A stretch of DNA of 64,000 nucleotides from Nitrosopumilus sp. (GCA_965214775.1 OZ243974.1:928001-992000), one strand, 5' to 3'; shown: positions 43,036-57,436, counted from the stretch's first letter. Made by a program: numbers and translations. Notes: generated by a model from the sequence alone, not told the origin.

Positions 43036-44748
43036 TCAGTACAGGCTGTACAGCCGGGACAGCGACAGCCGGTCTGACGGATTGACGGTCGCAACCTTTC
43101 CGTCCACCCTTACCTCGTATGTCTCAGGATTAACCTCGATCTTCGGGGTAAGGCTGTTGTGAACCATGTCCTTTTTTCCGATATCGCGGCAGTCTTTTAC
43201 GGGGACAAGCCTCTTTTTGACGCTGATCTTGGATTCCAGCCCCTTCTCCAGCGCCAGCCCTGACGTAAACGTAAGCGATGTGGAGTGCCTTGCCTCCCCT
43301 AGGGCGCCAAACATGGGCCGGTAGTAGACCGGCTCCGTGGTGGGAATCGATGCGTTTGGATCCCCCATCAGCGAATATGCCACGAGCCCCCCCTTGATTA
43401 TAAGCTTGGGCTTTATTCCAAAAAACTGCGGCGTCCAGACTATGATGTCTGCCAGCCTTCCAGGCTCAAGGGAGCCGACATGCCCGGAGATTCCGTGGGT
43501 GATTGCGGGATTGACTGTAATCTTTGCAAGGTACCGCTTTACCCGGAGGTTGTCGTTGTCCCCGGTCTCGCCGGCAAGCGGCCCGGTCATCCTCTTCATC
43601 TTGTCTGCAGTCTGCCAGTTTCTTGTCGTAACCTCGCCGACCCTTCCCATGGCCTGGCTGTCCGAGGACATCATGCTTATTGCCCCGATGTCGTGCAGTA
43701 CGTCCTCGGCGGCAATTGTCTCCCCCCTGATTCTTGACTCGGCAAAGGAGACGTCCTCGGGAACCGAGGGGTTGAGGTGGTGGCAGACCATCATCATGTC
43801 AAGGTGCTCTGCCAGCGTGTTGACGGTAAACGGCCTCGTGGGGTTTGTAGACGACGGAAGGACGTTAGCCTCGCCTGCCATCTTCATGATGTCAGGCGCA
43901 TGGCCGCCGCCTGCCCCCTCGGTGTGATAGGTGTGGATCGTTCGGCCGCCGATTGCCTCAATCGTGTCATCCACAAAGCCGCACTCGTTTAGCGTGTCGG
44001 TATGGATGGCAACCTGGGTGTCGGTCTTGTCGGCCACGCGCAGCGCGGAGTCTATTGCAGCAGGAGTTGAGCCCCAGTCCTCGTGCAGCTTCAGGCCGCA
44101 GGCTCCCGCCTCGATCTGCTCGATCAGGGCAGGCTCCTGCGAGTCGTTTCCCTTGCACAGGAACCCAAAGTTGAGGGGAAGCTCTTCTGCTGCCTCGATC
44201 ATCCTGTGGATGTTCCAGGCCCCCGGGGTGCACGTGGTCGCTTTTGTCCCGTCGGCCGGACCCGTGCCGCCGCCGATCATCGTAGTCGTTCCGTTGCAGA
44301 TTGCATCAATGGCCTGCTGCGGCGAGATAAAGTGGACGTGTGAGTCTACTGTCCCCGGGGTGCAGATCGTGTGCTCGCCGGCAATGACCTCGGTGTTTGA
44401 GGAGATTACCATGTCGATTCCGTCCATGACGTTTGGATTTCCCGCGTTTCCAACGCCGGCTATCCTGCCGTCCTTGATTCCAATGTCGCCCTTTACTATT
44501 CCCAGGATTGGATCCAGTACAATCGCGTTGGTGACTACCAGGTCCAGTGAGTTCTCCCTTGTGACGCCGCTTGCCTGGGCCATTCCGTCCCTTGCGCTTT
44601 TTCCGCCGCCAAAGACTGCCTCGTCGCCGTACCTGAGGAGATCCCTTTCGATCTCTATGATTAAATCGGTGTCCCCGAGTCTTATCCTGTCCCCCGTTGT
44701 CGGGCCGAAGAGCTCGACGTATCTCCGCCTTGGAATTGCCAGCGTCAC
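43036..44748 (-). CDS. ureC: Urease alpha subunit
   Basis: [34 protein letters not shown] and SSDSQAMGR motifs. Confidence 0.98.
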
Positions 44749-45122
44749 AAAGAGACCTCCCTGAATCCCCTCTCCCTTGCCCTTTGAAGCGCCTCCGTCC
44801 TTTTCTCGTCAAGATTCCCGTTGACCAGCCCGCTGAATCCAAAGACGATCCTTTTTCCGCCGTACTCGACAAGATCCACCTCCCTGGAGTCACCCGGCTC
44901 GAATCTTACAGACGTTCCCGCAGGGATGTTGAGATGAAACCCATAGGCCCTTTCCCTTGCAAAGGAGAGCGCCTTGTTTGCCTCAAAAAAGTGCGTGTGC
45001 GAGCCGACCTGGACCGGCCTGTCGCCCGTGTTGGATACACGCAGGGTGACGGTGTTTCTTCCCACGTTGGCAAGGATCTCGCCGTCAGATATCATGTACT
45101 CGCCGGGCCTCATGCATATCAC
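44745..45122 (-). CDS. ureB: Urease beta subunit
   Basis: [17 protein letters not shown] and [12 protein letters not shown] motifs. Confidence 0.97.
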
Positions 45123-45421
45123 ACTATGGGGTCGTGGACCGTGACCAGCTTTGTCCCGTCCTCAAAGGTGGCCTCCACCTGAATTGAATGAATCAGCTCC
45201 GGAACCCCGGGCAGCACGTCATCCTTTGAGAGGACCCTCCTTCCGGAGCTCATAAGGTCGGAGACGGATCTTCCGTCACGCGCCCCCTCCAGGATGTGAT
45301 CCGTGATTAGTGCCACGGCCTCCGGATGGTTTAACTTTAGGCCCCTGTCCTTTCTGCGCCCGGCAAGCTGTGCTGCCAGAAAGACATGCAGCTTGTCCAT
45401 CTCCCGGGGGGTAAGCATCAT
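45119..45421 (-). CDS. ureA: Urease gamma subunit
   Basis: LTPRE.DKL, LNHPEA and [18 protein letters not shown] motifs. Confidence 0.97.
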
Positions 45422-46295
45422 TGAAGCGACTAGCCGGTCAATGTATTTAATAGTTAAAGGCGGTCTTCACATATGTAACCCGACTCGTGGCGGCGCAGAC
45501 GGTGACGTGCGGATCTGCAGGCAGCCCTGCTTGAACTGTTTCGGGTTTGAGGTCGTTTTGTGGGGAAATTTTGGGAAGGCTGTACGGCATCTCTTCAAAC
45601 GATTCTCAGCTTGAAGACAATCGCGCGCCTGTTCTGTCCCTCGGAGTTTGGTCGCGTATCCATGTAATGAGAGACATATTCCAGCGTGTACCGGTAAACG
45701 AGACGATTGGGCTCTCGCTTTTCGAAATACAGCAGCTTAAAATCTCCGTCTCTTGCATATCTGATGATACTTTTGTTGCCTCTAGCCATCTCTTGGTCTC
45801 CATCCCCCTCTCCATCATACTCCACAACCCCATTCTTTACATCTACGCGATCGTTGTATTTCCGCCCCCAACTCTGATCAGATGGGGAGCTGATCAGGAT
45901 AACAACCTTGTTCTTTATAGACGGGCGTATTCCGCCGGAGTTTTTGACCTTAAATCGCTCGTACAACTGTTTTTCCGTAAACGCCTCTCCGATGCGTGGA
46001 ATGATTGGGTTTCCGGTCATGTCTGGTGCGGCGTTTGATGGTTGTTTGGACTGACCGAACTCACGGAAATGCTGGTCAACCTGATGATCCCTGTCTGGTG
46101 CGGCGTTTGATGGTTGTTTGGACCGGATGTTGACTCTGTCGTCTTTAGATGCAACGACATCTTCCCTCATCTTCTTTGGAGGCCTAGCTTTACCATGTTT
46201 ATCCAAAACCCAGTATGCCTCTAACCGATCCTTCGCTGGCATGTTGATTATGGCAGATGCTGGATCATCGCGGTATTCTTTTTGTTTAACATACC

Positions 46296-47780
46296 AGACT
46301 TTATGCGTAATTGGAAAATCTGATCTAAAAATACAACACAACAGATCATGGTTTGCATACCTACAACCATAAAGATCAGTAATGGTTCTCTAACGGTATG
46401 GGTTCAGATGTCGAGCTTGTCCAAACACTGCAAGAGCAAAACAAGAGTTTGGTAGAGCAAAACGAGCATCTGAAGAGCAGGCTTGCGTTTGAGGACTCGT
46501 TGTGGCAGTCCGAAGAAAACAAGACAAAAAGAGTCGTGCGCGGCGGGACGCCTCTGCGGATGCACGCAATCGAGGTTGCAGACGGCATAATCGGCGATCC
46601 GGTGCGCCTTCGCAACGTCACGGGATGCACAAAGGAGTCATTTACGATCATACTGGAGCGCTTTACGGAAGAAGTCATGGACGACGAGGACAGACCCCTG
46701 TTCTGGGAGGACGACGTAAGAGGCGGCGATGCCGGAAACCGGTGCAAGCTGTACATCAGGCACGCGCTGCTTGCAGTACTCATGAGCATAAGGACCAAGG
46801 CAACGCAGCATCATCTGGCCGCAACGTTTGACGTCGACCAGTCCACAATGTCCAGGTACCTCCGGTACGGTGCCGTGTTACTGCGCCAGCTCCTGCCTGC
46901 CTCCGAAAAGCTAACAAGCATCATCTGCAAGACCCCGGCAGGCAAGCTGGAGGAGGTGCTGATCCCAAAAAAGACGCTCCTGATTGACGGTACCCTGACT
47001 CCGGTAGACAGGCCCGGGGACAGGACCGCAAGAAAGACCAGATATTCGGGAAGAAAAAAGCGGCACATGTTCAACACGATAATTACCTCGAACCTGGACG
47101 GCCTCATACTGCACTGCGGCAAGACTGTGGACGGAAGCGTCAACGACAAGGGCGTGATGAACGCAGGGGGCGGCCCGGACTTTGGAAGGCACACCGGATC
47201 AATGAGGAATGCAAAAAACGCAGACGATCCGGAAGAGGCGTTTGTCGTTTTCAGCGACCTGGGATTTGAGGGCATTCAAAAGATGCTTCCGGGCGCCATA
47301 CACAGGCAGCCCCCAAAGAAGCCCAGGGACGGGGATCTTACTGCAACGCAAAAGAGGCGCCGCAAGCAGATAAGCAGGGTCCGCGTCAGGGTGGAGCACC
47401 ACATAGGGCGGCTCAAAAGATATGGCATTCTTACCATGCCGTTTGGCGGAACTGCCAAGGATCTAAACTATTTCATGCAGATAATCACGGGTCTTGAGAA
47501 CCTCAAGACGATGTTGAAAAGGAAAAAACACTATGGCCAGCTGCTGCAGCAGCTGCATCTGCTGCCAGACACATGACATACGGCGGTACGGACCGCCATT
47601 CTTTCTGACTTGTCAACGGGGCACATTGCCGTGCTGCATGGTTGCGCACGTTCTTTTGGCGCAACTGGCTTTTATGTGCGTCATGACACGAGATGCATGC
47701 GGTAATTTGATCCGATCAGCGCATTTGCGTTTGGAAAAGCCTACGGAATTTTTAATCACGGTCGATTACGCATAAAGTCT
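46296..47780 (+). mobile_element. IS5-family (ISL2-like, DDE_Tnp_4 type) element, copy 1, 1485 bp
   Basis: TIR AGACTTTATGCGTAAT; 3-bp duplication ACC at 46293-95 and 47781-83. Confidence 0.93.
46398..47576 (+). CDS. IS5/ISL2-type transposase
   Basis: HTH (LAATFDVDQSTMSR), IDGT, YSGRKKRH, SDLGFEG and RVRVEHHIGRLK motifs. Confidence 0.92.
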   Translation: MGSDVELVQTLQEQNKSLVEQNEHLKSRLAFEDSLWQSEENKTKRVVRGGTPLRMHAIEVADGIIGDPVRLRNVTGCTKESFTIILERFTEEVMDDEDRPLFWEDDVRGGDAGNRCKLYIRHALLAVLMSIRTKATQHHLAATFDVDQSTMSRYLRYGAVLLRQLLPASEKLTSIICKTPAGKLEEVLIPKKTLLIDGTLTPVDRPGDRTARKTRYSGRKKRHMFNTIITSNLDGLILHCGKTVDGSVNDKGVMNAGGGPDFGRHTGSMRNAKNADDPEEAFVVFSDLGFEGIQKMLPGAIHRQPPKKPRDGDLTATQKRRRKQISRVRVRVEHHIGRLKRYGILTMPFGGTAKDLNYFMQIITGLENLKTMLKRKKHYGQLLQQLHLLPDT

Positions 47781-48437
47781 ACCAGTCTCCATTGAGTATG
47801 TGTACGTTAAACCTCTTCCGTATCTCACCTGAGAAAGCGATAAAATCTATGTCGAACGTAAACAACACGACATCGTAATTCTTTGCTCGCTCTGCAAGAT
47901 ATATGGCTCTGGCCAGTATTTGGATGTCACGTGTGGCATCCTCTTTTGATATGCTAATGGAATGTGGATACTCGGGGTCTCTCCTATGCTTTATCATGTT
48001 CCATCTCCTTCTTTGTTGGGCAAATTTGTCATCACCATTTATGAAATCATACATTTCTACTACCCGATCTTCCAGCGCATTCTGTTCCTCTTCTGGGATC
48101 GTGGATTCATTTGATTCGGTGTTGGACACATTATCGGTGCACTGCTTGTGCTTGGAATCCAACACGGGGTTCAAGTGTTTTTTTTTTGGCAACACTCTCG
48201 TACTCTTTCATGACGTTTCTCATTATGAAAAATCTTGGATCGTTGTTAAAAAACGAGGCCACTGCACGATGACGATCATCATTTACATCACGATATATCT
48301 TACAAACGTTGGTTTCTGGCAGCAGAACAATGTCGTGGTTTAAGGTCGGGCCACGAGTATTTTTACTGCTCATCGTCATTGTAACAAAACACCTCTCAAA
48401 TATAACACGTTGTATCATCCTGGTTCTGGGATCTGTT

Positions 48438-48522
48438 GTAACTGATCGGGTTCTGGAAGCCGTTTCTGGTTTTGGGCGCGAATCTACCAAGAGGGCCTCC
48501 GAGATGGCAAAGCTCACTCCTT
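48438..48522. mobile_element. MITE family A, partial copy
   Basis: GTAACTGATCGGGTTCTGGAAGCCGTTTCTG... Confidence 0.7.
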
Positions 48523-48550
48523 GAGATCACGGTTCTGGACAACGCCGACT

Positions 48551-50085
48551 AGACTTTATGCGTAATCGACCGTGATTAAAAATTCCGTAGGCTTTTCCAA
48601 ACGCAAATGCGCTGATCGGATCAAATTACCGCATGCATCTCGTGTCATGACGCACATAAAAGCCAGTTGCGCCAAAAGAACGTGCGCAACCATGCAGCAC
48701 GGCAATGTGCCCCGTTGACAAGTCAGAAAGAATGGCGGTCCGTACCGCCGTATGTCATGTGTCTGGCAGCAGATGCAGCTGCTGCAGCAGCTGGCCATAG
48801 TGTTTTTTCCTTTTCAACATCGTCTTGAGGTTCTCAAGACCCGTGATTATCTGCATGAAATAGTTTAGATCCTTGGCAGTTCCGCCAAACGGCATGGTAA
48901 GAATGCCATATCTTTTGAGCCGCCCTATGTGGTGCTCCACCCTGACGCGGACCCTGCTTATCTGCTTGCGGCGCCTCTTTTGCGTTGCAGTAAGATCCCC
49001 GTCCCTGGGCTTCTTTGGGGGCTGCCTGTGTATGGCGCCCGGAAGCATCTTTTGAATGCCCTCAAATCCCAGGTCGCTGAAAACGACAAACGCCTCTTCC
49101 GGATCGTCTGCGTTTTTTGCATTCCTCATTGATCCGGTGTGCCTTCCAAAGTCCGGGCCGCCCCCTGCGTTCATCACGCCCTTGTCGTTGACGCTTCCGT
49201 CCACAGTCTTGCCGCAGTGCAGTATGAGGCCGTCCAGGTTCGAGGTAATTATCGTGTTGAACATGTGCCGCTTTTTTCTTCCCGAATATCTGGTCTTTCT
49301 TGCGGTCCTGTCCCCGGGCCTGTCTACCGGAGTCAGGGTGCCGTCAATCAGGAGCGTCTTTTTTGGGATCAGCACCTCCTCCAGCTTGCCTGCCGGGGTC
49401 TTGCAGATGATGCTTGTTAGCTTTTCGGAGGCAGGCAGGAGCTGGCGCAGTAACACGGCACCGTACCGGAGGTACCTGGACATTGTGGACTGGTCGACGT
49501 CAAACGTTGCGGCCAGATGATGCTGCGTTGCCTTGGTCCTTATGCTCATGAGTACTGCAAGCAGCGCGTGCCTGATGTACAGCTTGCACCGGTTTCCGGC
49601 ATCGCCGCCTCTTACGTCGTCCTCCCAGAACAGGGGTCTGTCCTCGTCGTCCATGACTTCTTCCGTAAAGCGCTCCAGTATGATCGTAAATGACTCCTTT
49701 GTGCATCCCGTGACGTTGCGAAGGCGCACCGGATCGCCGATTATGCCGTCTGCAACCTCGATTGCGTGCATCCGCAGAGGCGTCCCGCCGCGCACGACTC
49801 TTTTTGTCTTGTTTTCTTCGGACTGCCACAACGAGTCCTCAAACGCAAGCTGCTTCCTCATACGCTCGTTTTGCTTGGACATCTGTTTGTTTTGCTTGGA
49901 TACCTGCTCGTGTTGCTCGACTAGCATCTCGTGTTGCGCTTGTAACGCTTGAAATGCTTGGAGAGTCTTGTCATTTGAGCCCATACAGTTAGGGAATCAT
50001 ACAGATCTTTAGGGTTGTTGGTGTGCAAATAATGATCTATTGTGTCGTATTTTTAGATCAGATGGGCCGATTACGCATAAAGTCT
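48551..50085 (-). mobile_element. IS5-family element, copy 2, 1535 bp, inverted relative to copy 1
   Basis: Same TIR; 3-bp duplication ACT at 48548-50 and 50086-88. Confidence 0.93.
48755..49984 (-). CDS. IS5/ISL2-type transposase with a longer N-terminus
   Basis: Protein identical to copy 1 from LAFEDSLW onward. Confidence 0.92.
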   Translation of the reverse strand: MGSNDKTLQAFQALQAQHEMLVEQHEQVSKQNKQMSKQNERMRKQLAFEDSLWQSEENKTKRVVRGGTPLRMHAIEVADGIIGDPVRLRNVTGCTKESFTIILERFTEEVMDDEDRPLFWEDDVRGGDAGNRCKLYIRHALLAVLMSIRTKATQHHLAATFDVDQSTMSRYLRYGAVLLRQLLPASEKLTSIICKTPAGKLEEVLIPKKTLLIDGTLTPVDRPGDRTARKTRYSGRKKRHMFNTIITSNLDGLILHCGKTVDGSVNDKGVMNAGGGPDFGRHTGSMRNAKNADDPEEAFVVFSDLGFEGIQKMLPGAIHRQPPKKPRDGDLTATQKRRRKQISRVRVRVEHHIGRLKRYGILTMPFGGTAKDLNYFMQIITGLENLKTMLKRKKHYGQLLQQLHLLPDT

Positions 50086-50089
50086 ACTA

Positions 50090-50257
50090 TAGTGACGATT
50101 AAAAGTTTTTGAGCACACATGGGTGTAAACTACACAGGAAGACACTTTTTGGTGATCAAAGACTTTCAGTCGCCACTATAGCAACGAGCAGAAATAATTG
50201 AGGTTTTTTACGCGTAGTTATGACCTGCTTTGACTCAAAGACTTCTGCCCGTTGCCA
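50090..50257. mobile_element. MITE family H (50090-50178) with MITE C (50179-50257) inserted at its terminal TA
   Basis: H TIR TAGTGACGATTAAAAGT / ACTTTCAGTCGCCACTA; C TAGCAACG...CGTTGCCA followed by TATA. Confidence 0.82.
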
Positions 50258-50607
50258 TATAGAGTCAAAAATTCCTGAAATTTTAGATGCTGTTTGATTA
50301 TCCTAGTTCTAATATTTGATCATACAGATATGCCTGGACGGGAAACATGTTTTTAATAATTTTTCCTTGCTCGGATTTTTCCCATGTTTTCCAACAATTT
50401 TATGTAACTCCTTAGTTTCTTCTGATCCTTCCAATTTCGATATCCTGTTTCTTTCAGTTATTATCTCGTTAGTTTTGCTGTTGATATCTTCTATGTTTTT
50501 CTCTTTTTTGAAATATTTTTGTATCAGGACACTCATGATCTTCAAAAATAAAATATCAGACACATGCGTATATTCCTTGTACGTTGTACCCCTCTGACAT
50601 GCTGACG

Positions 50608-51741
50608 TAGTATCTACGTCAGCCATTTGTTCATCTTTACCACCTTTATCTCGCCCCTGCGCGTCATACTGCGCAGTGATCTCTGCATCTCCTTGACGGT
50701 CTTGTAAAGGCAGTTTGAAGTCGCCTTTTTGAACCCGCGCCACTGCCCCTCCGAGTTGTTAAGCTCCGGCGCGTACGGCGGCAGGTACTTTAGCACCACG
50801 TCCCCGTTCCACTTGGCCATCTTTCTATTGAGTTCTGCTGACTTGTGGTACGATGCGTTGTCGACAAACAACAACACCTTGCCGTACTTGCGGCGCAGTG
50901 TCCTGAGAAACTTGTAGAACGTTCCCGTGTTGGCCTTTTCGTAAAAGCGATAGTCAAACCTGTTTCTTGAGAGGGCCCCTATGACATAGAACCGCTTCCT
51001 AGACAGGCTGACGGGCGTATAGACCGGCTCTCCTACGGGGTACCAGCTGTTCTTGACGTTCCATCCCAGTATGAACATGGACTCGTCGCCTATCATTACC
51101 GTGTACCCCTTTTTTGAATAGTACTTTGCGCTCTGCCTAGCTTTTTTTTGAACTCCTTTTTCTCGGATTCTGAGGCTGATTTTGGGTGTTTTGGCCTGGG
51201 CTTTCTGCATGAGAAGCCGATTCTGTGCAGCAGGTCGTACATGCTCGTTTCTGCATACGTGATGCCGAACTTCTTTTTGACGTGGGCAATGACCAGCGGC
51301 CCTGTCCATGTTGTGGCCTTAAAGCCGCAGTTGTCCGGGCCCTTGATCAGGTCTGCGCGCAGCCGTTCAAGCTGTTTCTTGTCGAGCCTGCACGGGGCGC
51401 CATGCTTTATGTCAAACCTGCCCTCCAGGCCATGCTTGTGCGCACGCACCAGCCAGTATCGTACGGTTCCATACGGCCTGCTCAGCTTCTCGGCAATATC
51501 ATATATGCTCGCGCCGCACTTTCTCATGTGGTATGCAAGGAGCCGGATTGCCGCCTTGGCGTCCTTCTCGGACTTGTGCATCCTAAAAAGCTCGTCCTTG
51601 CTTGCTATCCCGTACAGGAACGCTGTTCCCGTCGGTAATTCCTTCTTTCCTTTCATGTGTATATATGGGACTAATAGCTCTTAGATCCTTTGGTTGAAAA
51701 AAATTGTCCTTTTTGTGATCAATTGGTAGCCGAGGATACTA
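50608..51741 (-). mobile_element. IS630-family element; transposase split into ORF A (51096-51656) and ORF B (50614-51309) by an A8 slippery site at 51142-51149
   Basis: HTH ORF (TWTGP, GFSCRKPRP); DDE motifs GDES, VDNASYH, LPPYAPELN.SE; imperfect ~26-bp TIR starting TAGTATC; TA at both ends. Confidence 0.92.
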
Positions 51742-52052
51742 CGCACGAGGAGAGCATGTTTCTTCCGCCATCTGCAACATGTTCATATGTGTGCGGGTTG
51801 TTCTCAAGATCGCGGCACTGTCTGGATTTTTGTTTTGTCAACGAAAACCACGGGGCCGCACAGTAATTGATCTGTTTGCAACTGCCGGTTTTGTCAGGAT
51901 GGTCTGATTCCTTGGTCTTCTGCCTGACCGGGGTACTTTTCACTTGGCTGTATTCTTCAAAAAATTTTTACGAGTAAAAATTGATCAAATGTGAACAAAA
52001 AGGCCAAACCGAGATCTGAGGAGCTGTTAAATAGCAGATTTTTCTGATAATT

Positions 52053-52613
52053 TTGAGGAATTTGCGATCGTTGGATGTATATGACACTATTTACTTAACT
52101 TTGGCCGCCAATGGCAATACAATAAGAGGACGAACCACTATTCACAAACTAATCTATTTTGAATTGCAAAAAATTCCTGAGCTAGACATAGAGCCACACA
52201 TTGCGTATTTTTATGGCCCGTTTAACATCCAGGTTGCACAGGGGTTGGAGACATTAGTTCATTTAGGCGCCCTAGATGAACGAAGATCACGTAAAGACAG
52301 CTCTTATGAATACACAATATTGGATGAAAGAACTCCCACATACAAACGATTAATCAAAGATAACAAAGAAATTTATGAAAAAATCAAAGATATTGTCCAA
52401 ACGTGTTCTGATTACTGTAACTTGAATGTAAATTCACTTTCTTTTGCTGCCAAGGTGCATTACATGCTGTCTAAACAAGAGCGCAAAAAGGGAATGACAG
52501 AAAAAGAAGCCAGTGACATGGCAAGCAAATTCGGTTGGGATATTACAGAAAAAGATGTTAAATCTGGTGCTGAATTATTACGAGAGCTCAACCTTGTCAA
52601 AATTAAACGATAA
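52053..52613 (+). CDS. YwgA/SocA(Panacea)-like winged-helix protein, putative antitoxin/regulator
   Basis: IRGRTTIHKLIYF and YFYGPFN.QV...LE.L...G motifs; overlaps the HD gene start by 20 nt. Confidence 0.7.
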   Translation: MRNLRSLDVYDTIYLTLAANGNTIRGRTTIHKLIYFELQKIPELDIEPHIAYFYGPFNIQVAQGLETLVHLGALDERRSRKDSSYEYTILDERTPTYKRLIKDNKEIYEKIKDIVQTCSDYCNLNVNSLSFAAKVHYMLSKQERKKGMTEKEASDMASKFGWDITEKDVKSGAELLRELNLVKIKR

Positions 52614-53979
52614 AAACTATTTTCGACATAAATCAATCAGAGATCCCCTCTATGGATTTATCAATTTATCTAAAAAGGAAATTGAATTAGTTGATTCTCC
52701 TAGTTTTCGACGATTATAGCAACGAGCAGAAATAATTGAGGTTTTTTACGCGTAGTTATGACCTACTTTGACTCAAAGACTTATGCCCGTTGCTATACAA
52801 AACATCAAACAGCTTTCACATGCATATGTAGTATATCCCTCTGCCACTCATACTAGATTTGAACATTCTTTGGGATCCGTTCATATTGCCAATAGAATGT
52901 GCGAACAGTTGGACTTTGACAGTGAGAGGAAAGAACTTGTCAGACAATCCATGTTGCTGCACGATATTGGTCACGGTCCTTTTTCCCACTTGTTTGAACA
53001 CGTTCTTTCTCACATTAACGGAAGCAAATTTGATCATGAGGATATTACCTCATGGATTATTGGCGAGGATCCAGATATCAAATCAATAGTAGGTTCCAAC
53101 AGAGAAAAAATCATTAAAATTTTAAAAAAAGATGATCGTACAAAAGACTGGGAAGATAAAGGCTATTCATTAAACTCAGATATTGTTTCAAGTGGTTTAG
53201 ATGCGGACAAGCTGGACTATCTGCGAAGAGACTCTTATCATATTGGAGCAACATATGGACAGTTTGATTTAGAACGAATCATTCTTACATTGAGACAGAC
53301 TCCAACAGGAAATCGTATTTGTGTAGATCAGAAGGGTAAGGATGCCATTGAAAATTATAGATTGGGAAGATATTTGATGCATGCTCAAGTATACGAACAT
53401 CATGCACGTGTAGCAGCCGATCAAATGTTTCTCAAAGCACTAAAGTTTGCCACAGATGATGAAATTATTGATAAAAAGACACTAACCACTTCCAAATCTT
53501 GCTCTCATAAAAAATTCTTGGACTATTATTTGAAATTAGACGATCGTGGAATTTACCAAATGATTCTTGAGAAAGGAAAATCCAGATCTGCAAAAATTCT
53601 TAACGCGATAAAGTGTAGAAAGTTGCTTAAACGGGCATGTGACTATACATTAGGATCAAAGGAAGACTATGAAGCAAGTGAAAAAATTTTAAGATTGGAT
53701 GGTGAAAAATTTGCAAATGAGCTTGCTGCTGCAACCAAAATAAACCCTGCAGACGTTATTGTTAAAGTATCCAAAATCACGATTAAATTATATGATAAGG
53801 GGGATATTTTGGTTTTACAGAAACGCATTCCATTAGATTTGAATGGCTTGTCCCCAATCTCCTCTGAGAACTCTATCACAAAGCTAATCATATTTGGTCC
53901 TAGAGATGACAAACAGCGAAAAAAACTAACAAAGGAAGTTTCAAATTACCTAAAAATCCCCATGAAAAACATCATATGA
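52594..53979 (+). pseudogene. HD-domain dNTP triphosphohydrolase-like gene (SAMHD1/YwfO type; 434 aa restored) interrupted by MITE C
   Basis: IRDPLYG, FRRL|QNIKQL, HTRFEHSLG, LLHDIGHGPFSH and DADKLDYLRRD motifs. Confidence 0.88.
52717..52795. mobile_element. MITE family C (79 bp) inside the HD gene
   Basis: TAGCAACG...CGTTGCTA with TA duplicated at 52715-16 and 52796-97. Confidence 0.95.
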
Positions 53980-54021
53980 ATGCCTGCCCCACTCGCAATT
54001 TCTGCAAATTTGGCAAAAATA

Positions 54022-54394
54022 GTAACAGGTTGAGCTCTAGAAGCTCAGACGTGAATCTTGCCACTGCTAGTTCTCTTGGGTAGCATCTCCGGCCAGCAGA
54101 ATGATTTGGAAAAAATACAACACATAAAGATCGCAGGATCTGTTTTCTAGGTATTGGTAGTGGATCCTGGCATTGCGGACGCGGACTGGAACAATCCCGA
54201 CCCGGTGCCACTGCGGTCCGTATCCCGAAAAACACAGCAGATTGTGCCAAAATCCAGCTTCCAGAGACCCATCAGACAGATTCGTGCCTGAAATCAGGAA
54301 CAGCTTCCAGAGCCCGGCCTGTTACCATGCAAGGGGTGGAAATTCAGAAAAGCGTGCAGATTGAGTCAAACAGCCGGAATTGCGCGACAACCTC
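54022..54394. mobile_element. Expanded MITE A (54022-54325) followed by the right half of MITE E
   Basis: GTAACAGGTTGAGCTCTAGAAG ... CTTCCAGAGCCCGGCCTGTTAC, then GGAAATTCAGAAAAGCGTGCAG...GCGACAACCTC. Confidence 0.75.
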
Positions 54395-54438
54395 CATACG
54401 ATCTAAGAAAATATAACTCATCAGAGCTATCAGATACC

Positions 54439-54936
54439 ATGCTGAGTATAACATCCGTTTCCGGAAATATTTTTCATGACAGGGGATACGAGTCGCTAAA
54501 GGACAGGGGGTTTGAGCGGTTCAGGGTCTCACGTGCAGAGCTTGAAAAAAGCCGCATCAGAAGGCAGACGGACATGGGAACGGATATCGGCCTGGCCCTC
54601 GCCCCGGGCAGGATCCTGCGCCATGGCGACGTACTGCTGTCAGGTGGCGGGAAGGTCATAGTTGTAGAACAGCTGCCAGAAAAGGTGATCTCCGTCAGGC
54701 TCAAAAACAGCAAGGCGTCCCGGGTCGATCTTCTGGTGCTTGTCGGACACATTATAGGAAACAGGCACAGGCCAATCTCAATAAAAAACGACGTTATCTA
54801 CTTTCCAATCCAGGCAGACTCTGAGCTTGAGGTGTTTCAAAGACTGTTTGCAGGCGTGATCGACGATATCGAGCTGTCGGTTGACGAGATGGTCTTTAGC
54901 CCGCATACGGAGGCAGGTGTACACGACCATGGATGA
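54439..54936 (+). CDS. ureE: Urease accessory protein UreE
   Basis: LRHGDVL, GHIIGNRHRP and His-rich tail HTEAGVHDHG. Confidence 0.9.
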   Translation: MLSITSVSGNIFHDRGYESLKDRGFERFRVSRAELEKSRIRRQTDMGTDIGLALAPGRILRHGDVLLSGGGKVIVVEQLPEKVISVRLKNSKASRVDLLVLVGHIIGNRHRPISIKNDVIYFPIQADSELEVFQRLFAGVIDDIELSVDEMVFSPHTEAGVHDHG

Positions 54937-55624
54937 TCCTGCAGTGGAGCTTGGCATGATGCAGCTGTCCGACTCGTTTTTTCCCACGGGGCTGTTTGCG
55001 ACCTCAAACGGCCTGGAAAGCCTGTTTATGGACGGGAGGGTCACCTCCGCGCACGATCTGGCCGAGTTCAGCAGGGTATGCCTTGAGCAGCAGGTGGGGC
55101 CGTCTGACTGCATAGCCCTCTCAAACGCATATGGTTTTGCAGAGTCCTCAGACCGCGAGGGCATAATGGAGCTGGACGCAATATGCGCCTCCATGCGGAC
55201 GGTAAAGGAGGCCAGGGACGCGTCCCTGAGATCCGGGGCCCAGCTGGCAAGGTGTGTCAGGGGGTTTCAGGGCGGCGACGGGCTCCTAGGCTGGTACTAT
55301 AATGAGATTCAGAACGGGGGCGTCGCCGGCTCCTATCCGGTCTCGCTTGCAGTATGCTGCAACGCGCTTGGAATAAAAAAGGAAAAGGCGCTGCTGATGC
55401 TGCTTTACGGCTTTGTTGCAAGCAACGTGGGCGCCGCACTGCGTCTGGGAATGATCCAGCACCTTGAGGGCCAAAGGGTCATACATGAGTTGAAACCGGT
55501 GATGGCAAGGGTCGCACGGATGTATTCGGGCAGGACGGTCGCGGACATGTGGCAGTTCGCACCGCAGATCGAAATCAACCAGATGTCACATGAGGGGATG
55601 GACTCCAAGATGTTCATCACATGA
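54929..55624 (+). CDS. ureF: Urease accessory protein UreF
   Basis: QLSDSFFPTG.F.TSNGLE, AALRL and H....SKMFIT motifs. Confidence 0.93.
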   Translation: MDDPAVELGMMQLSDSFFPTGLFATSNGLESLFMDGRVTSAHDLAEFSRVCLEQQVGPSDCIALSNAYGFAESSDREGIMELDAICASMRTVKEARDASLRSGAQLARCVRGFQGGDGLLGWYYNEIQNGGVAGSYPVSLAVCCNALGIKKEKALLMLLYGFVASNVGAALRLGMIQHLEGQRVIHELKPVMARVARMYSGRTVADMWQFAPQIEINQMSHEGMDSKMFIT

Positions 55625-56283
55625 GGCGCATCAGGATGACAAGAATCCCGAGGATAGGCATCGGCGGCCCCGTCGGCTCTGGAAAAAGCATGCTTATCGA
55701 GAGGGTCGTTCCGGTACTGGCGGGGAAGGGCTACAGCGTCAGCGTGATCTCCAATGATGTCATCTCAAAGGAGGATGCAGACAGGATGAGGGAGAACCTG
55801 GCCACAAACCGCGGACTGCTGCCCGAGAACCTCGTGATCGGCCTTGCCACGGGGGGATGCCCGCACACGGCAATCAGGGAGGATCCATCGATGAACATCG
55901 CGGTAATAGAGGAGCTAGAGGAGAGCCACCCCGAGCTGGATCTCATCATAATAGAGAGCGGGGGGGACAACATAACGACGACGTTCAGTCCGATTCTTGC
56001 GGATTACTTTATCTACATTATCGACGTTGCAGGGGGCGACAAGTATCCCAGAAAGGGGGGGCTGGGAATCGAGAGTTGCGACCTCTTGGCAATCAACAAG
56101 ACTGACCTGGCGCCGCTCGTGGGCGCGGACTTGGACGTCATGAAAAACGACGCCCGGAAGCTGAGAAAGGACAAGCCGTTTTTGCTCATAAACTGTAAAA
56201 CCGACGAGGGAATAGGGGAGGTGGCTCAGCACATCATCCACGACGTGCTGTTTGACGCGCAGCCAAAGGCCGGCGCCTCCTGA
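55621..56283 (+). CDS. ureG: Urease accessory GTPase UreG
   Basis: GGPVGSGKS, TGGCPH, ESGGDN and NKTD motifs. Confidence 0.96.
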   Translation: MRRIRMTRIPRIGIGGPVGSGKSMLIERVVPVLAGKGYSVSVISNDVISKEDADRMRENLATNRGLLPENLVIGLATGGCPHTAIREDPSMNIAVIEELEESHPELDLIIIESGGDNITTTFSPILADYFIYIIDVAGGDKYPRKGGLGIESCDLLAINKTDLAPLVGADLDVMKNDARKLRKDKPFLLINCKTDEGIGEVAQHIIHDVLFDAQPKAGAS

Positions 56284-56292
56284 CGCAGGAAA

Positions 56293-57219
56293 ATGGACGG
56301 TTCGGATTTTTACACGCCATCGGACGTTCCTGAAAGCATCAGGGCCTTTGACTCCGAGGTAAGGCAGCTGGCAGTCGGAAAGGCCGGAAAAAACGGCTCC
56401 CTGAGGCTGGTCTTTCAAAGTGATCAGAACGGGAGGACCGTCGTGGGGGATCTGTTCTCCGAGGCGCCCCTTCACGTACAAAGGGCGCTGCACTATGACG
56501 ACTCGTGCCCGGACCTAGCATACCTGTACATGGTCTCATCGTCCGGCGGGGTGCTGCAGGGAGACCGATACAGGATTGACATCACGATGAAAAAAAACTC
56601 TAGGGCCCACGTTACAACACAGGGTGCAACCAGGATTTACGGCATGGATTCAAACAGCGCGACGCAGATGATCAACATTACGCTAGACGAGGACTCGTAT
56701 CTGGAGTTTGTCCCGGACCAGATAATCCCGTATCGCAACTCAAGATTCTACCAGAAAACGAGCCTGAGGGTACACGACTCGGCCACCGCGGTCTGCTCAG
56801 AGATTGTTACTCCCGGACGGACTGCAATGAACGAGTCATTTGAGTATGACGTGTGCTATCTCAAGACCAGTGCAAGCAATCATGAAAACGTCACTAGATT
56901 CACGGATGCCGCAAGCCTTGAGCCAAAAAAGCAGGGGCTTTCATCCCCCGGGATCCTTGGGGGCCATGCGGTTGTAGGTTCCGTATACATTCTGACCGGA
57001 AGGCAGAACGCCTCAGGGCTGCACGGGCAAGTCAACGCGGCAATTTCCGAAAGTGCGGGGGTCTTGGGCGGGGCAAGCCTCATGAGAAACGATGCCGGGC
57101 TGCTGGTCAGAATTCTAGGAGACGAGACCGAGCCTGTCAGGGATGCGATTCTGGGCATAGTCGGCTCTGTCAGGAGGGCGGCAATCGGCGCATCGTTTTC
57201 AGGCATTAGAAAGAACTAG
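56293..57219 (+). CDS. ureD: Urease accessory protein UreD/UreH
   Basis: SSGGVLQGD, TTQGATRIY, PDQIIPY and PGRTAMNE.F motifs. Confidence 0.93.
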   Translation: MDGSDFYTPSDVPESIRAFDSEVRQLAVGKAGKNGSLRLVFQSDQNGRTVVGDLFSEAPLHVQRALHYDDSCPDLAYLYMVSSSGGVLQGDRYRIDITMKKNSRAHVTTQGATRIYGMDSNSATQMINITLDEDSYLEFVPDQIIPYRNSRFYQKTSLRVHDSATAVCSEIVTPGRTAMNESFEYDVCYLKTSASNHENVTRFTDAASLEPKKQGLSSPGILGGHAVVGSVYILTGRQNASGLHGQVNAAISESAGVLGGASLMRNDAGLLVRILGDETEPVRDAILGIVGSVRRAAIGASFSGIRKN

Positions 57220-57290
57220 ACGGATGTCTCTGAGGGTGATACGGGAGTTGCTTCCTAGCTCGGCAATCAGTCTGATTTTCTAAATTCTCT

Positions 57291-57436
57291 CCGGAGAGGT
57301 GATCCGAAATTAGAAACCGTGCGAATTTTTCAAGCAATTTCACAGATATCTTGTATTTTGTTGATATTTTGAGTTGTTTTATGCAAATTCGTTCACAAAT
57401 AATCAGAGTCTGCTAATTTTGAATCAACTCTCAGGG
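57291..57436. mobile_element. MITE family J (~145 bp)
   Basis: Imperfect TIR CCGGAGAGGTGATCCGAAATTAG / CTAATTTTGAATCAACTCTCAGGG; inverted copy at 60293-60438. Confidence 0.8.

Follow-up and report, generated by a model that had tools for sequence, protein, structure and literature searches.

What kind of gene once stood where broken remains now lie within the urease cluster of a Nitrosopumilus genome, and what would its product have done? We addressed this question for a stretch of 64,000 nucleotides from Nitrosopumilus sp. (GCA_965214775.1 OZ243974.1:928001-992000), which is called the window below and whose positions are counted from its first letter. The broken gene spans 48379 to 45595 on the minus strand, and the locus is the wreck of one gene in which a PIN-type nuclease and an SRA-type reader of modified DNA bases were fused. 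The gene is a pseudogene in this genome and, being dead, has no present function. For the intact protein, the explanation that we put first, with the chances about evenly balanced, is that it was a single-chain, modification-dependent nuclease (type IV-restriction-like) belonging to a mobile island in the urease cluster.

Reconstruction of the broken gene

The coding sequence is split into three pieces, N, M and C, of 67, 132 and 232 amino acids (aa), which together make 431 aa. Each piece is free of stop codons on the minus strand, and the stop codon of the gene lies at 45597-45595. Pieces M and C are separated by an insertion sequence (IS), IS copy 1, whose ends are 16-bp terminal inverted repeats that match perfectly (AGACTTTATGCGTAAT), with an ACC target duplication on either side (46293-46295 and 47781-47783). 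When IS copy 1 and one ACC are excised, ...HILNGDW is joined in frame to YVKQKEYR...; in the genome as it stands, a TAG stop (47781-47779) arises at the IS junction, right after ...GDW. The break between pieces N and M is a frameshift caused by one extra A in a homopolymer tract (Table 1). The ATG at 48379 encodes the start Met, which piece N has in common with P0152, the relative described below, and an in-frame stop lies upstream of it at about 48527. A second IS, IS copy 2, sits ~170 bp upstream of the start codon. That it had also cut the coding region was ruled out by this in-frame stop and by the shared start Met.

Both joins have independent support. P0152 is a 380-aa protein from a metagenome contig, an uninterrupted relative that begins MTMSSKNT... 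and is 82%, 66% and 70% identical to pieces N, M and C, respectively. It reads ...AKQKHLNPVLD... / NVAKQKHLNPVLD at the frameshift site and ...HILSAFWYFDHK... / HILSAFWYFDHKSEYD across the IS joint. Hence a two-domain PIN-linker-SRA protein existed, and it is still uninterrupted in P0152. A paralogue in the same genome as the window (L002:1510-2712:-, 401 aa, 63% identical to piece M) is likewise unbroken across both lesion sites, and its end is 51% identical to the ~45-aa tail of piece C (DPASAIINM...LDKHGKA...KDDR). In run X6, which comes from a different study and carries a different organism label, the base at 48178 is missing at 66.3 of 66.3 depth in 2 contigs, and a contig of the same run lacks the IS, 46210 being joined directly to 47793. 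The A10 tract is kept exactly in runs X1 and X3, the deletion being present in 0 of 83 and 0 of 14.7 depth; as these two runs may represent the source culture, they lend no independent support and do no more than speak against an assembly error as the origin of the extra A.

These observations bear out the reconstruction proposed in an earlier note on this DNA, which had held that three fragments form one gene of 431 aa starting at ATG 48379, that removal of the IS with one ACC repairs the M/C join and that deletion of one A from the A10 tract repairs the N/M join. The single gene is upheld by the stop-free pieces and by the unbroken P0152 and paralogue, the first repair by P0152 and the X6 contig, both of which read through without the IS, and the second by the agreement of P0152 with X6. 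A different site for the frameshift, the CCCC run just downstream, would give KKKTLEPVLD and fit the DLEP of the paralogue. It was ruled out by three lines of evidence: the frameshift is placed at the A run because P0152 reads KQKHLNPVLD, because the DNA alignment favours the A run and because X6 lacks the base at 48178. RNA-polymerase slippage on the A10 tract could restore the frame in some transcripts, but it could not undo the IS.

The duplicated SKQPSNAAPD, which the same note had pointed out, is real, and the exact nucleotide copies behind it are given in Table 1. The doubling results from an in-frame insertion of 72 bp, which neither P0152 nor the closest relative of the C-terminal part (L011, see below) has. 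In this region, an X6 contig skips 46054-46162 and has 38 other letters in between.

The insertion point of IS copy 1 coincides with the boundary between the PIN part and the tail, where the standalone relatives of the PIN domain also end. The insertion left a complete, SRA-less PIN open reading frame (ORF), and one A added to an A9 run breaks the PIN half. We speculate that this additional frameshift may reflect selection to silence an unleashed nuclease.

The two domains and their relatives

The AlphaFold2 model of the C-terminal SRA domain has a predicted local distance difference test score (pLDDT) of 91.5 and a predicted template modelling score of 0.86. A Foldseek search of the Protein Data Bank (PDB) with this model gave 65 matches at E<=0.001. 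The best of them was the SBD-SRA structure of ScoMcrA (5zmn_A, E 5.8e-9, TMq 0.74), and the others listed, all SRA-containing, include SUVH5/6/9, KRYPTONITE, AspBHI, MspJI, LpnPI, TagI and UHRF1/2. At E<=1e-3, an exhaustive HMMER search with piece C found 308 relatives, which all align to its last ~135 residues; 31 of these relatives reach E<=1e-10. A family profile made by aligning the window domain with 30 mostly standalone members matched, among PDB sequences, the SRA domains of ScoMcrA (5zmn, E 6e-9) and SUVH5 (E 0.0028). RE_AspBHI_N is found in 15 of the 31 members of this family and SAD_SRA in 9 (best 3.9e-9). The conserved SRA motifs GGI, Y.D, Y.G.G..GDQ....N and R.V..F.L are present in the window domain. 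The C-terminal domain is predicted to have the SRA fold, of the prokaryotic type seen in ScoMcrA, AspBHI, MspJI, LpnPI and TagI, and we regard this call as sound.

No Pfam model of the PIN clan scores above its curated cut-off in the window gene. Below the cut-off, piece M matches PIN_4 with an E-value of 0.0037 (18 bits vs 21.9), and the domain of the L002 paralogue matches PIN at E 0.19; the standalone relatives were scanned without a PIN family match. We aligned the family in up to 24 rows (alignment A6), which are numbered here after P0152. Of the 12 rows with a residue at position 22, 10 have D; the 2 with E are the window gene and P0152, so that only the SRA-fused lineage shows the D-to-E change. 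E59 is present in 18 of 18 rows, and D151, D175 and D177 are each present in 24 of 24. The acidic residues of a canonical PIN domain stand after strand 1, in a helix, at the start of a helix and after strand 4. The set of four acidic residues is found here in that canonical order and at places that agree with the predicted strands and helices, with a helical insertion of ~90 residues between the second and the third.

In a structural comparison with VIA-align, the best match was 1y82_A (Z 9.3, root-mean-square deviation 4.0, 143 of 147 residues aligned), VapC11 had a Z of 8.8 and seven rows reached Z>=8, values that have to be read with the tool's caveat that models lacking a clear match often have a best Z of 7-8. 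Titles that mention VapBC, VapC, FitAB, a toxin-antitoxin system or an addiction module make up 13 of the 20 top rows, and Nob1 and pre-40S entries also occur, at Z 6.1-6.4. A language-model search for look-alikes pointed to the PIN_halo cluster at 0.90, which is a lead only. With moderate support, and with fold evidence that is not strong, the N-terminal ~200 aa may be described as a divergent VapC-like PIN domain. The earlier note had arrived at both domains from short motifs, and all the motifs that it quoted are present in the window translation. Its SRA call is substantiated by the model and the ScoMcrA match given above; its PIN-like reading of the N-terminus, with E rather than D as the first acidic residue, finds support in the sub-threshold PIN_4 match, the best VIA-align score and alignment A6. 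A PIN+SRA homologue in a single ORF, which it had thought worth seeking in other genomes, was found in P0152.

A profile search of 5.8 billion proteins returned 19 members of this PIN family, mostly standalone proteins of 130-210 aa. Piece M was matched in 5 of 60 related genomes, all five being standalone ORFs in the window's own genus. The partners of the SRA domain were counted in 108 multi-domain relatives, which are those of the best 150 matches (out of 308) whose length exceeds 190 aa. HNH is found in 31 of them, followed by HNH_2 (9), HNH_5 (8), Helicase_C (6), ResIII (5), NOV_C (5) and Mrr_N (2), and no PIN family is among the 25 partner families listed in this census.

The closest relative of the cassette formed by tail, linker and SRA domain is an intact 529-aa gene of another archaeal genome (L011:7008-8594:+), the sole locus found in a scan of genome contigs. 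Its protein consists, in this order, of a hydrophobic N-terminus, Mrr_cat (2.3e-30), a poly-Glu linker of ~70 residues and the cassette, the last being 62% identical to piece C over 225 aa. The neighbours of the gene are an AbiEii-like gene, a helix-turn-helix (HTH) gene and IS630-like transposases. The L011 locus thus has the cassette and a setting rich in IS and defence genes in common with the window gene, and it differs in its Mrr_cat effector, hydrophobic N-terminus and poly-Glu linker, in being intact and in lacking the 72-bp insertion. Judged by its domains, the L011 protein may be a membrane-anchored modification-dependent restriction enzyme. Just upstream of it, a tandem array of 21-nt repeats (L011:6162-6888) is open in several frames.

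Because the same cassette is carried by Mrr_cat in L011 and by PIN here, it appears to be a portable targeting module, attached to a restriction nuclease in one genome and to a PIN domain in another. In L011, the ~45-aa tail accompanies the SRA domain, whereas in the L002 paralogue, which ends right after the tail, it accompanies the PIN domain; we infer that these two genes could be recombination products of one ancestral PIN-tail-SRA gene. A scan of metagenome contigs with P0152 gave 71 pattern matches, none of which was confirmed. As a separate observation, a 727-nt contig present in X1 (depth 14.4) and X6 (depth 45.1) matches the SRA-coding blocks 45594-45741, 45920-46053 and 46165-46266 with ~12-17% differences and has other sequence in between. 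It is a second, diverged gene with the cassette in co-occurring organisms.

The standalone relatives of the PIN domain have a setting of their own. In four of the five loci searched (L005-L008, not L009), the standalone PIN gene (~200 aa) lies directly 3' of a conserved gene that also encodes ~200 aa. In PADLOC, this partner weakly matches PDC-M19A (1.5e-10) and the C-terminal portion of DarG (1.4e-8), and the two genes would make a candidate toxin-antitoxin-like pair. In L005-L008, the frame of the PDTNAC motif has no ATG, GTG or TTG before the motif, which may be explained by a non-canonical start codon or by short gene calls. A tblastn search with the partner gene (L005:342-959) at E<=1e-3 gave no match in the window, and no antitoxin-like neighbour was found beside the window gene, upstream of which are IS copy 2 and then a 144-aa ORF without a family match.

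The L002 paralogue is unusual in another respect. The only Ribosomal_S17e match in the genome (PF00833, 4e-18) is the N-terminus of this ORF (G000:C1:~473898-475100), which continues with at least six 12-aa PEGLTEQPETPK repeats and ends with the PIN paralogue and its tail, the acidic set being intact. P0151 (389 aa) is a database variant of this protein with a different repeat region. The S17e-PIN fusion did not turn up when 60 related genomes were searched with piece M. An IS fragment precedes the S17e-PIN gene at a distance of ~430 bp. Such a tethering of a ribosomal protein to a PIN nuclease is out of the ordinary.

The island and its insertion sequences

The gene lies in an island of ~9 kb. 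On one side of it are the urease structural genes ureCBA (43036-45421, minus strand), on the other the accessory genes ureEFGD (54361-57216, plus strand). In the region 45500-57300 the island comprises two IS families, the dead PIN-SRA gene, a 186-aa ORF that weakly matches PDC-S05 and PDC-M19A, and an HD/HD_assoc_2 protein whose weak matches are of the dGTPase type (PADLOC dGTPase, 1.3e-8). The coordinates are collected in Table 1. The 144-aa ORF mentioned above (50309-50743, minus strand), a putative gene, runs in the same direction as the PIN-SRA gene, and with its 5' part it overlaps the end of the IS630-like element. It would have been the upstream neighbour of the PIN-SRA gene, and may have been its partner, before IS copy 2 inserted.

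Table 1. Pieces of the PIN-SRA gene, its lesions and surrounding features; positions refer to the window except for the four loci of standalone relatives in the last line
Feature	Position	Strand	Remarks
Piece N	48179-48379	-	codons 1-67, MTMSSKNT...ESVAKKK; PIN strand 1 with LLPETNVC and the invariant Glu (KEY)
A10 homopolymer	48178-48187	-	one extra A, frameshift between pieces N and M
Piece M	47782-48177	-	codons 68-199, HLNPVLDSKHKQ...HILNGDW; remaining PIN part with RDIQILA and TFDIDF
Piece C	45595-46293	-	codons 200-431 and stop; conserved ~45-aa tail, low-complexity linker, SRA domain
Duplicated stretch	46020-46123	-	exact 32-nt copies 46020-46051 and 46092-46123, 72 nt apart
SRA (PUA-like) domain	45598-46026	-	143 aa
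IS copy 1	46296-47780	+	1485 bp; transposase ORF 46398-47576
IS copy 2	48551-50085	-	1535 bp, 409-aa transposase; inverted relative to copy 1
IS630-like element	50614-51680	-	split transposase; DDE_3 4.1e-27; HTH_33, HTH_32
186-aa ORF and HD/HD_assoc_2 protein	52053-53979	+	other island cargo
Standalone PIN gene with partner	L005:342-1773, L006:1486-2918, L007:362-1779, L008:365-1782		partner 54-84% identical between loci

The transposase of IS copy 1 (392 aa) is apparently intact, with matches to DDE_Tnp_4 (4.9e-21) and HTH_Tnp_4 (1.9e-08). IS copy 2, whose transposase matches DDE_Tnp_4 at 2.8e-21, is 99% complementary to copy 1 over 1326 nt and is flanked by an ACT target duplication (48548-48550 and 50086-50088). 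As each copy has its own matching target duplication, an inversion of the segment between the two inverted copies was ruled out. A DDE transposase, terminal inverted repeats, 3-bp target duplications and multiple copies are all found, as expected of an IS, and we take the element to be of the IS5/Harbinger-like family. The genome holds 42 matches to it, 24 of them full length. These fall into size classes of 1535, 1556 and 1577 bp at 97-100% identity and a class of 1485 bp with six copies at 93-94%. The copy in the gene belongs to the 1485-bp class, and its transposase has a shorter N-terminus (392 vs 409 aa). Because there are 24 full-length copies plus fragments, the copy number and identity point to a recent and probably ongoing expansion of the element in this genome.

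Role of the intact protein

To our knowledge, the nucleases of modification-dependent (type IV) restriction are almost exclusively DNases of the HNH, PD-(D/E)XK/Mrr or GmrSD type. If the intact protein was built as P0152 is, residues ~15-200 would form the divergent VapC-like PIN domain, followed by the tail of ~45 residues, a flexible low-complexity linker and an SRA domain of ~140 residues. The SRA domain would bind cytosine-type modified bases of foreign DNA that enters the cell, and cutting, which is the job of Mrr_cat or HNH in the nearest relatives, would be left to the PIN domain tethered to it. The type IV-like reading is put first because these nearest relatives use Mrr_cat or HNH for cutting. 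By the same comparison, a direct restriction-like role seems at least as likely as an abortive one, because the closest cassette relative carries Mrr_cat and the commonest partner is HNH; action at or near the marked DNA would be slightly favoured over that of a cell-killing RNase.

Reader and nuclease are in one chain both in the P0152 ORF and in the repaired window gene, as in type IV enzymes, and P0152 has a weak match to PADLOC mREase_IV (7.3e-4). No match to HNH or Mrr_cat, the recognised DNases of such enzymes, was found in any window piece or in P0152. The Pfam label PF26348.1, precomputed for P0152, was not recovered in our own Pfam scan. The protein resembles ScoMcrA (ScoA3IV), TagI and the MspJI/AspBHI/LpnPI group, which likewise combine a prokaryotic-type SRA/PUA-like targeting module and a nuclease in one chain; in contrast to them, its nuclease is PIN-like, not HNH or PD-(D/E)XK, and its low-complexity linker is long. 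The VapC-like PIN toxins of VapBC systems match it in the predicted fold and in the active site of four acidic residues, and the standalone relatives keep an upstream partner gene. The differences from VapBC are the ~90-residue helical insertion, the SRA fusion, the sub-threshold similarity to Pfam PIN models and the fact that no antitoxin-like neighbour was found in the window.

The host has 0 matches to the C5-methyltransferase family PF00145 (the control was positive in 9 of 14 genomes), and therefore a 5mC-directed (5-methylcytosine) enzyme would have spared its own DNA. That the gene was inactivated on account of the host's own cytosine methylation was ruled out by the lack of a PF00145 gene, other methyltransferase families not having been searched.

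A number of observations weigh against the type IV-like reading. In the SRA part, the 143-aa domain of the window taken alone matches RE_AspBHI_N at E 0.0021, with 18.1 bits vs a cut-off of 27, and has no SAD_SRA match, and piece C has no family match in Pfam (E<=1), PADLOC (E<=1) or NCBIfam (E<=0.1). P0152 ends ~24 residues before the C-terminus of the window protein (...YVSQ) and may itself be partial or truncated; it lacks these last residues of the SRA fold, and no complete intact copy has been seen as a protein. In the ScoMcrA paper, the residues that contact 5mC in UHRF1 and SUVH5 are reported not to be conserved in the ScoMcrA SRA, which mediates dimerisation in the crystal (PMC6224610). 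In the PIN part, the AlphaFold2 model of P0152 has a mean pLDDT of 60.9, with PIN core blocks of 63-93, and a Foldseek search with it gave 0 matches at E<=0.001. The structural search that the earlier note had suggested for both folds was thus successful for SRA, with its 65 matches, and not for PIN. The profile of the PIN family found no PIN chain among PDB sequences, the caveat on Z scores given above applies, and E22 could mean an attenuated or altered active site. The proteins that come closest to the PIN domain in predicted structure are toxins that act as RNases rather than DNases, which suits an abortive RNase better. Finally, the architecture is rare: among the 19 members of the PIN family it is limited to the window and P0152, the PIN family was found in none of the best 150 SRA relatives (hmmsearch E<=10, positive control 5.6e-56), and the SRA domain was not found in any of the 60 related genomes.

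Such an abortive or toxin-like role, the idea of the earlier note, is possible, if on balance unlikely. The SRA domain would sense modified viral DNA and activate the PIN domain as an RNase against tRNA, rRNA or mRNA of host or virus, and the infected cell would stop growing. Structurally, the PIN domain comes closest to RNase toxins of the VapC/FitB kind (13 of the 20 top rows of VIA-align), and the standalone relatives are found in a two-gene toxin-antitoxin-like module with a DarG/PDC-M19A-like partner in 4 of 5 loci. The linker, being long and flexible, gives no hint of cleavage at a set distance, and a stand-alone PIN ORF that was left by the IS and then frameshifted would fit selection against an unregulated toxin. 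However, no antitoxin-like neighbour was found beside the window gene, the nearest cassette relative and most partners of the SRA family are DNases, and the caveats about the PIN fold and the ligand are the same as for the type IV-like reading.

A related and bolder explanation, which we consider doubtful, is that the SRA domain parks on hypermodified or methylated viral DNA while the VapC-like PIN RNase, on its long leash, destroys nascent viral transcripts in cis or, once activated, cellular RNA. If this is true, marked DNA would be restricted via cleavage of RNA, not of DNA, and the protein would represent a new effector class of modification-dependent immunity. In this RNA-cleavage reading, the PIN family would also have been recruited to the ribosome through the S17e fusion.

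It is quite improbable that the protein had a housekeeping or quality-control role directed at RNA, in which the SRA/PUA domain would read a modified RNA base (e.g. m5C in tRNA or rRNA) and the PIN domain would cut that RNA. PUA-superfamily domains are described as RNA-binding in the PIN-GNAT-PUA literature (PMC5499597), the PIN paralogue fused to the genome's only S17e places the family at the small ribosomal subunit in at least one case, and the VIA-align list includes Nob1 and pre-40S entries. However, the SRA domain clusters with the readers of DNA modification ScoMcrA, AspBHI, MspJI, LpnPI and TagI, and its cassette is common to an Mrr_cat restriction nuclease. Absence from 60 of 60 related genomes, location in an IS-rich island and dispensability here are also atypical for a housekeeping gene. 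Most improbable of all is an evolutionary accident, a chance non-functional chimera from IS-mediated rearrangement that was never selected: the 24 full-length IS copies in the genome, the recurrence of parts of the gene in other chimeras (S17e-PIN-tail in the same genome, Mrr_cat-tail-SRA in L011), the IS fragment ~430 bp upstream of the S17e-PIN gene and the extreme rarity of the architecture would fit it, but the open frame is kept in the second, diverged lineage of P0152 (82%, 66% and 70% identity), contigs of run X6, which belongs to another study, carry the fusion as well, and both copies keep the catalytic set and the SRA motifs.

Returning to the type IV-like reading, we asked how far the architecture is new. 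The earlier note had not recognised it from described systems, and in full-text searches we found no paper that names a direct PIN-SRA fusion, although supplementary fusion tables (PMC6765204) may list some. The main text of the PIN classification paper contains 0 occurrences of SRA (PMC5499597). However, in Lutz et al. 2019, PUA-superfamily domains are mentioned as fused also to 'Pin nuclease (RNase)', their restriction role being untested (PMC6765204). According to Matelska et al. 2017 and Bell et al. 2020, the PIN-GNAT-EVE/PUA proteins (PIN_15, PIN_17) also combine a PIN domain and a PUA-superfamily reader in one protein and are predicted, uncharacterised components of toxin or defence systems (PMC7641849, PMC5499597). 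They are described there with a GNAT-like domain in between, an EVE or ASCH reader and an ASCH/HTH partner gene, none of which is seen here. The claim of an undescribed architecture therefore holds for the direct PIN-SRA fusion as far as our searches reached, and it has to be softened because fusions of PIN with PUA-superfamily domains have already been mentioned in print. PIN-SRA is a rare variant of the modification-dependent nuclease architecture and not a new kind of system.

The value of the finding is tempered by the fact that the gene is dead here, that its architecture is very rare and that PUA-superfamily–PIN fusions are already in print. A VapC-like PIN domain on an SRA domain would nevertheless show that the targeting cassette can plug onto a toxin-type nuclease and, if the PIN domain cuts RNA, the sensing of marked DNA would be linked to the destruction of RNA. 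The locus is also a record of defence genes in ammonia-oxidiser-type archaea and of how fast they decay when IS are active.

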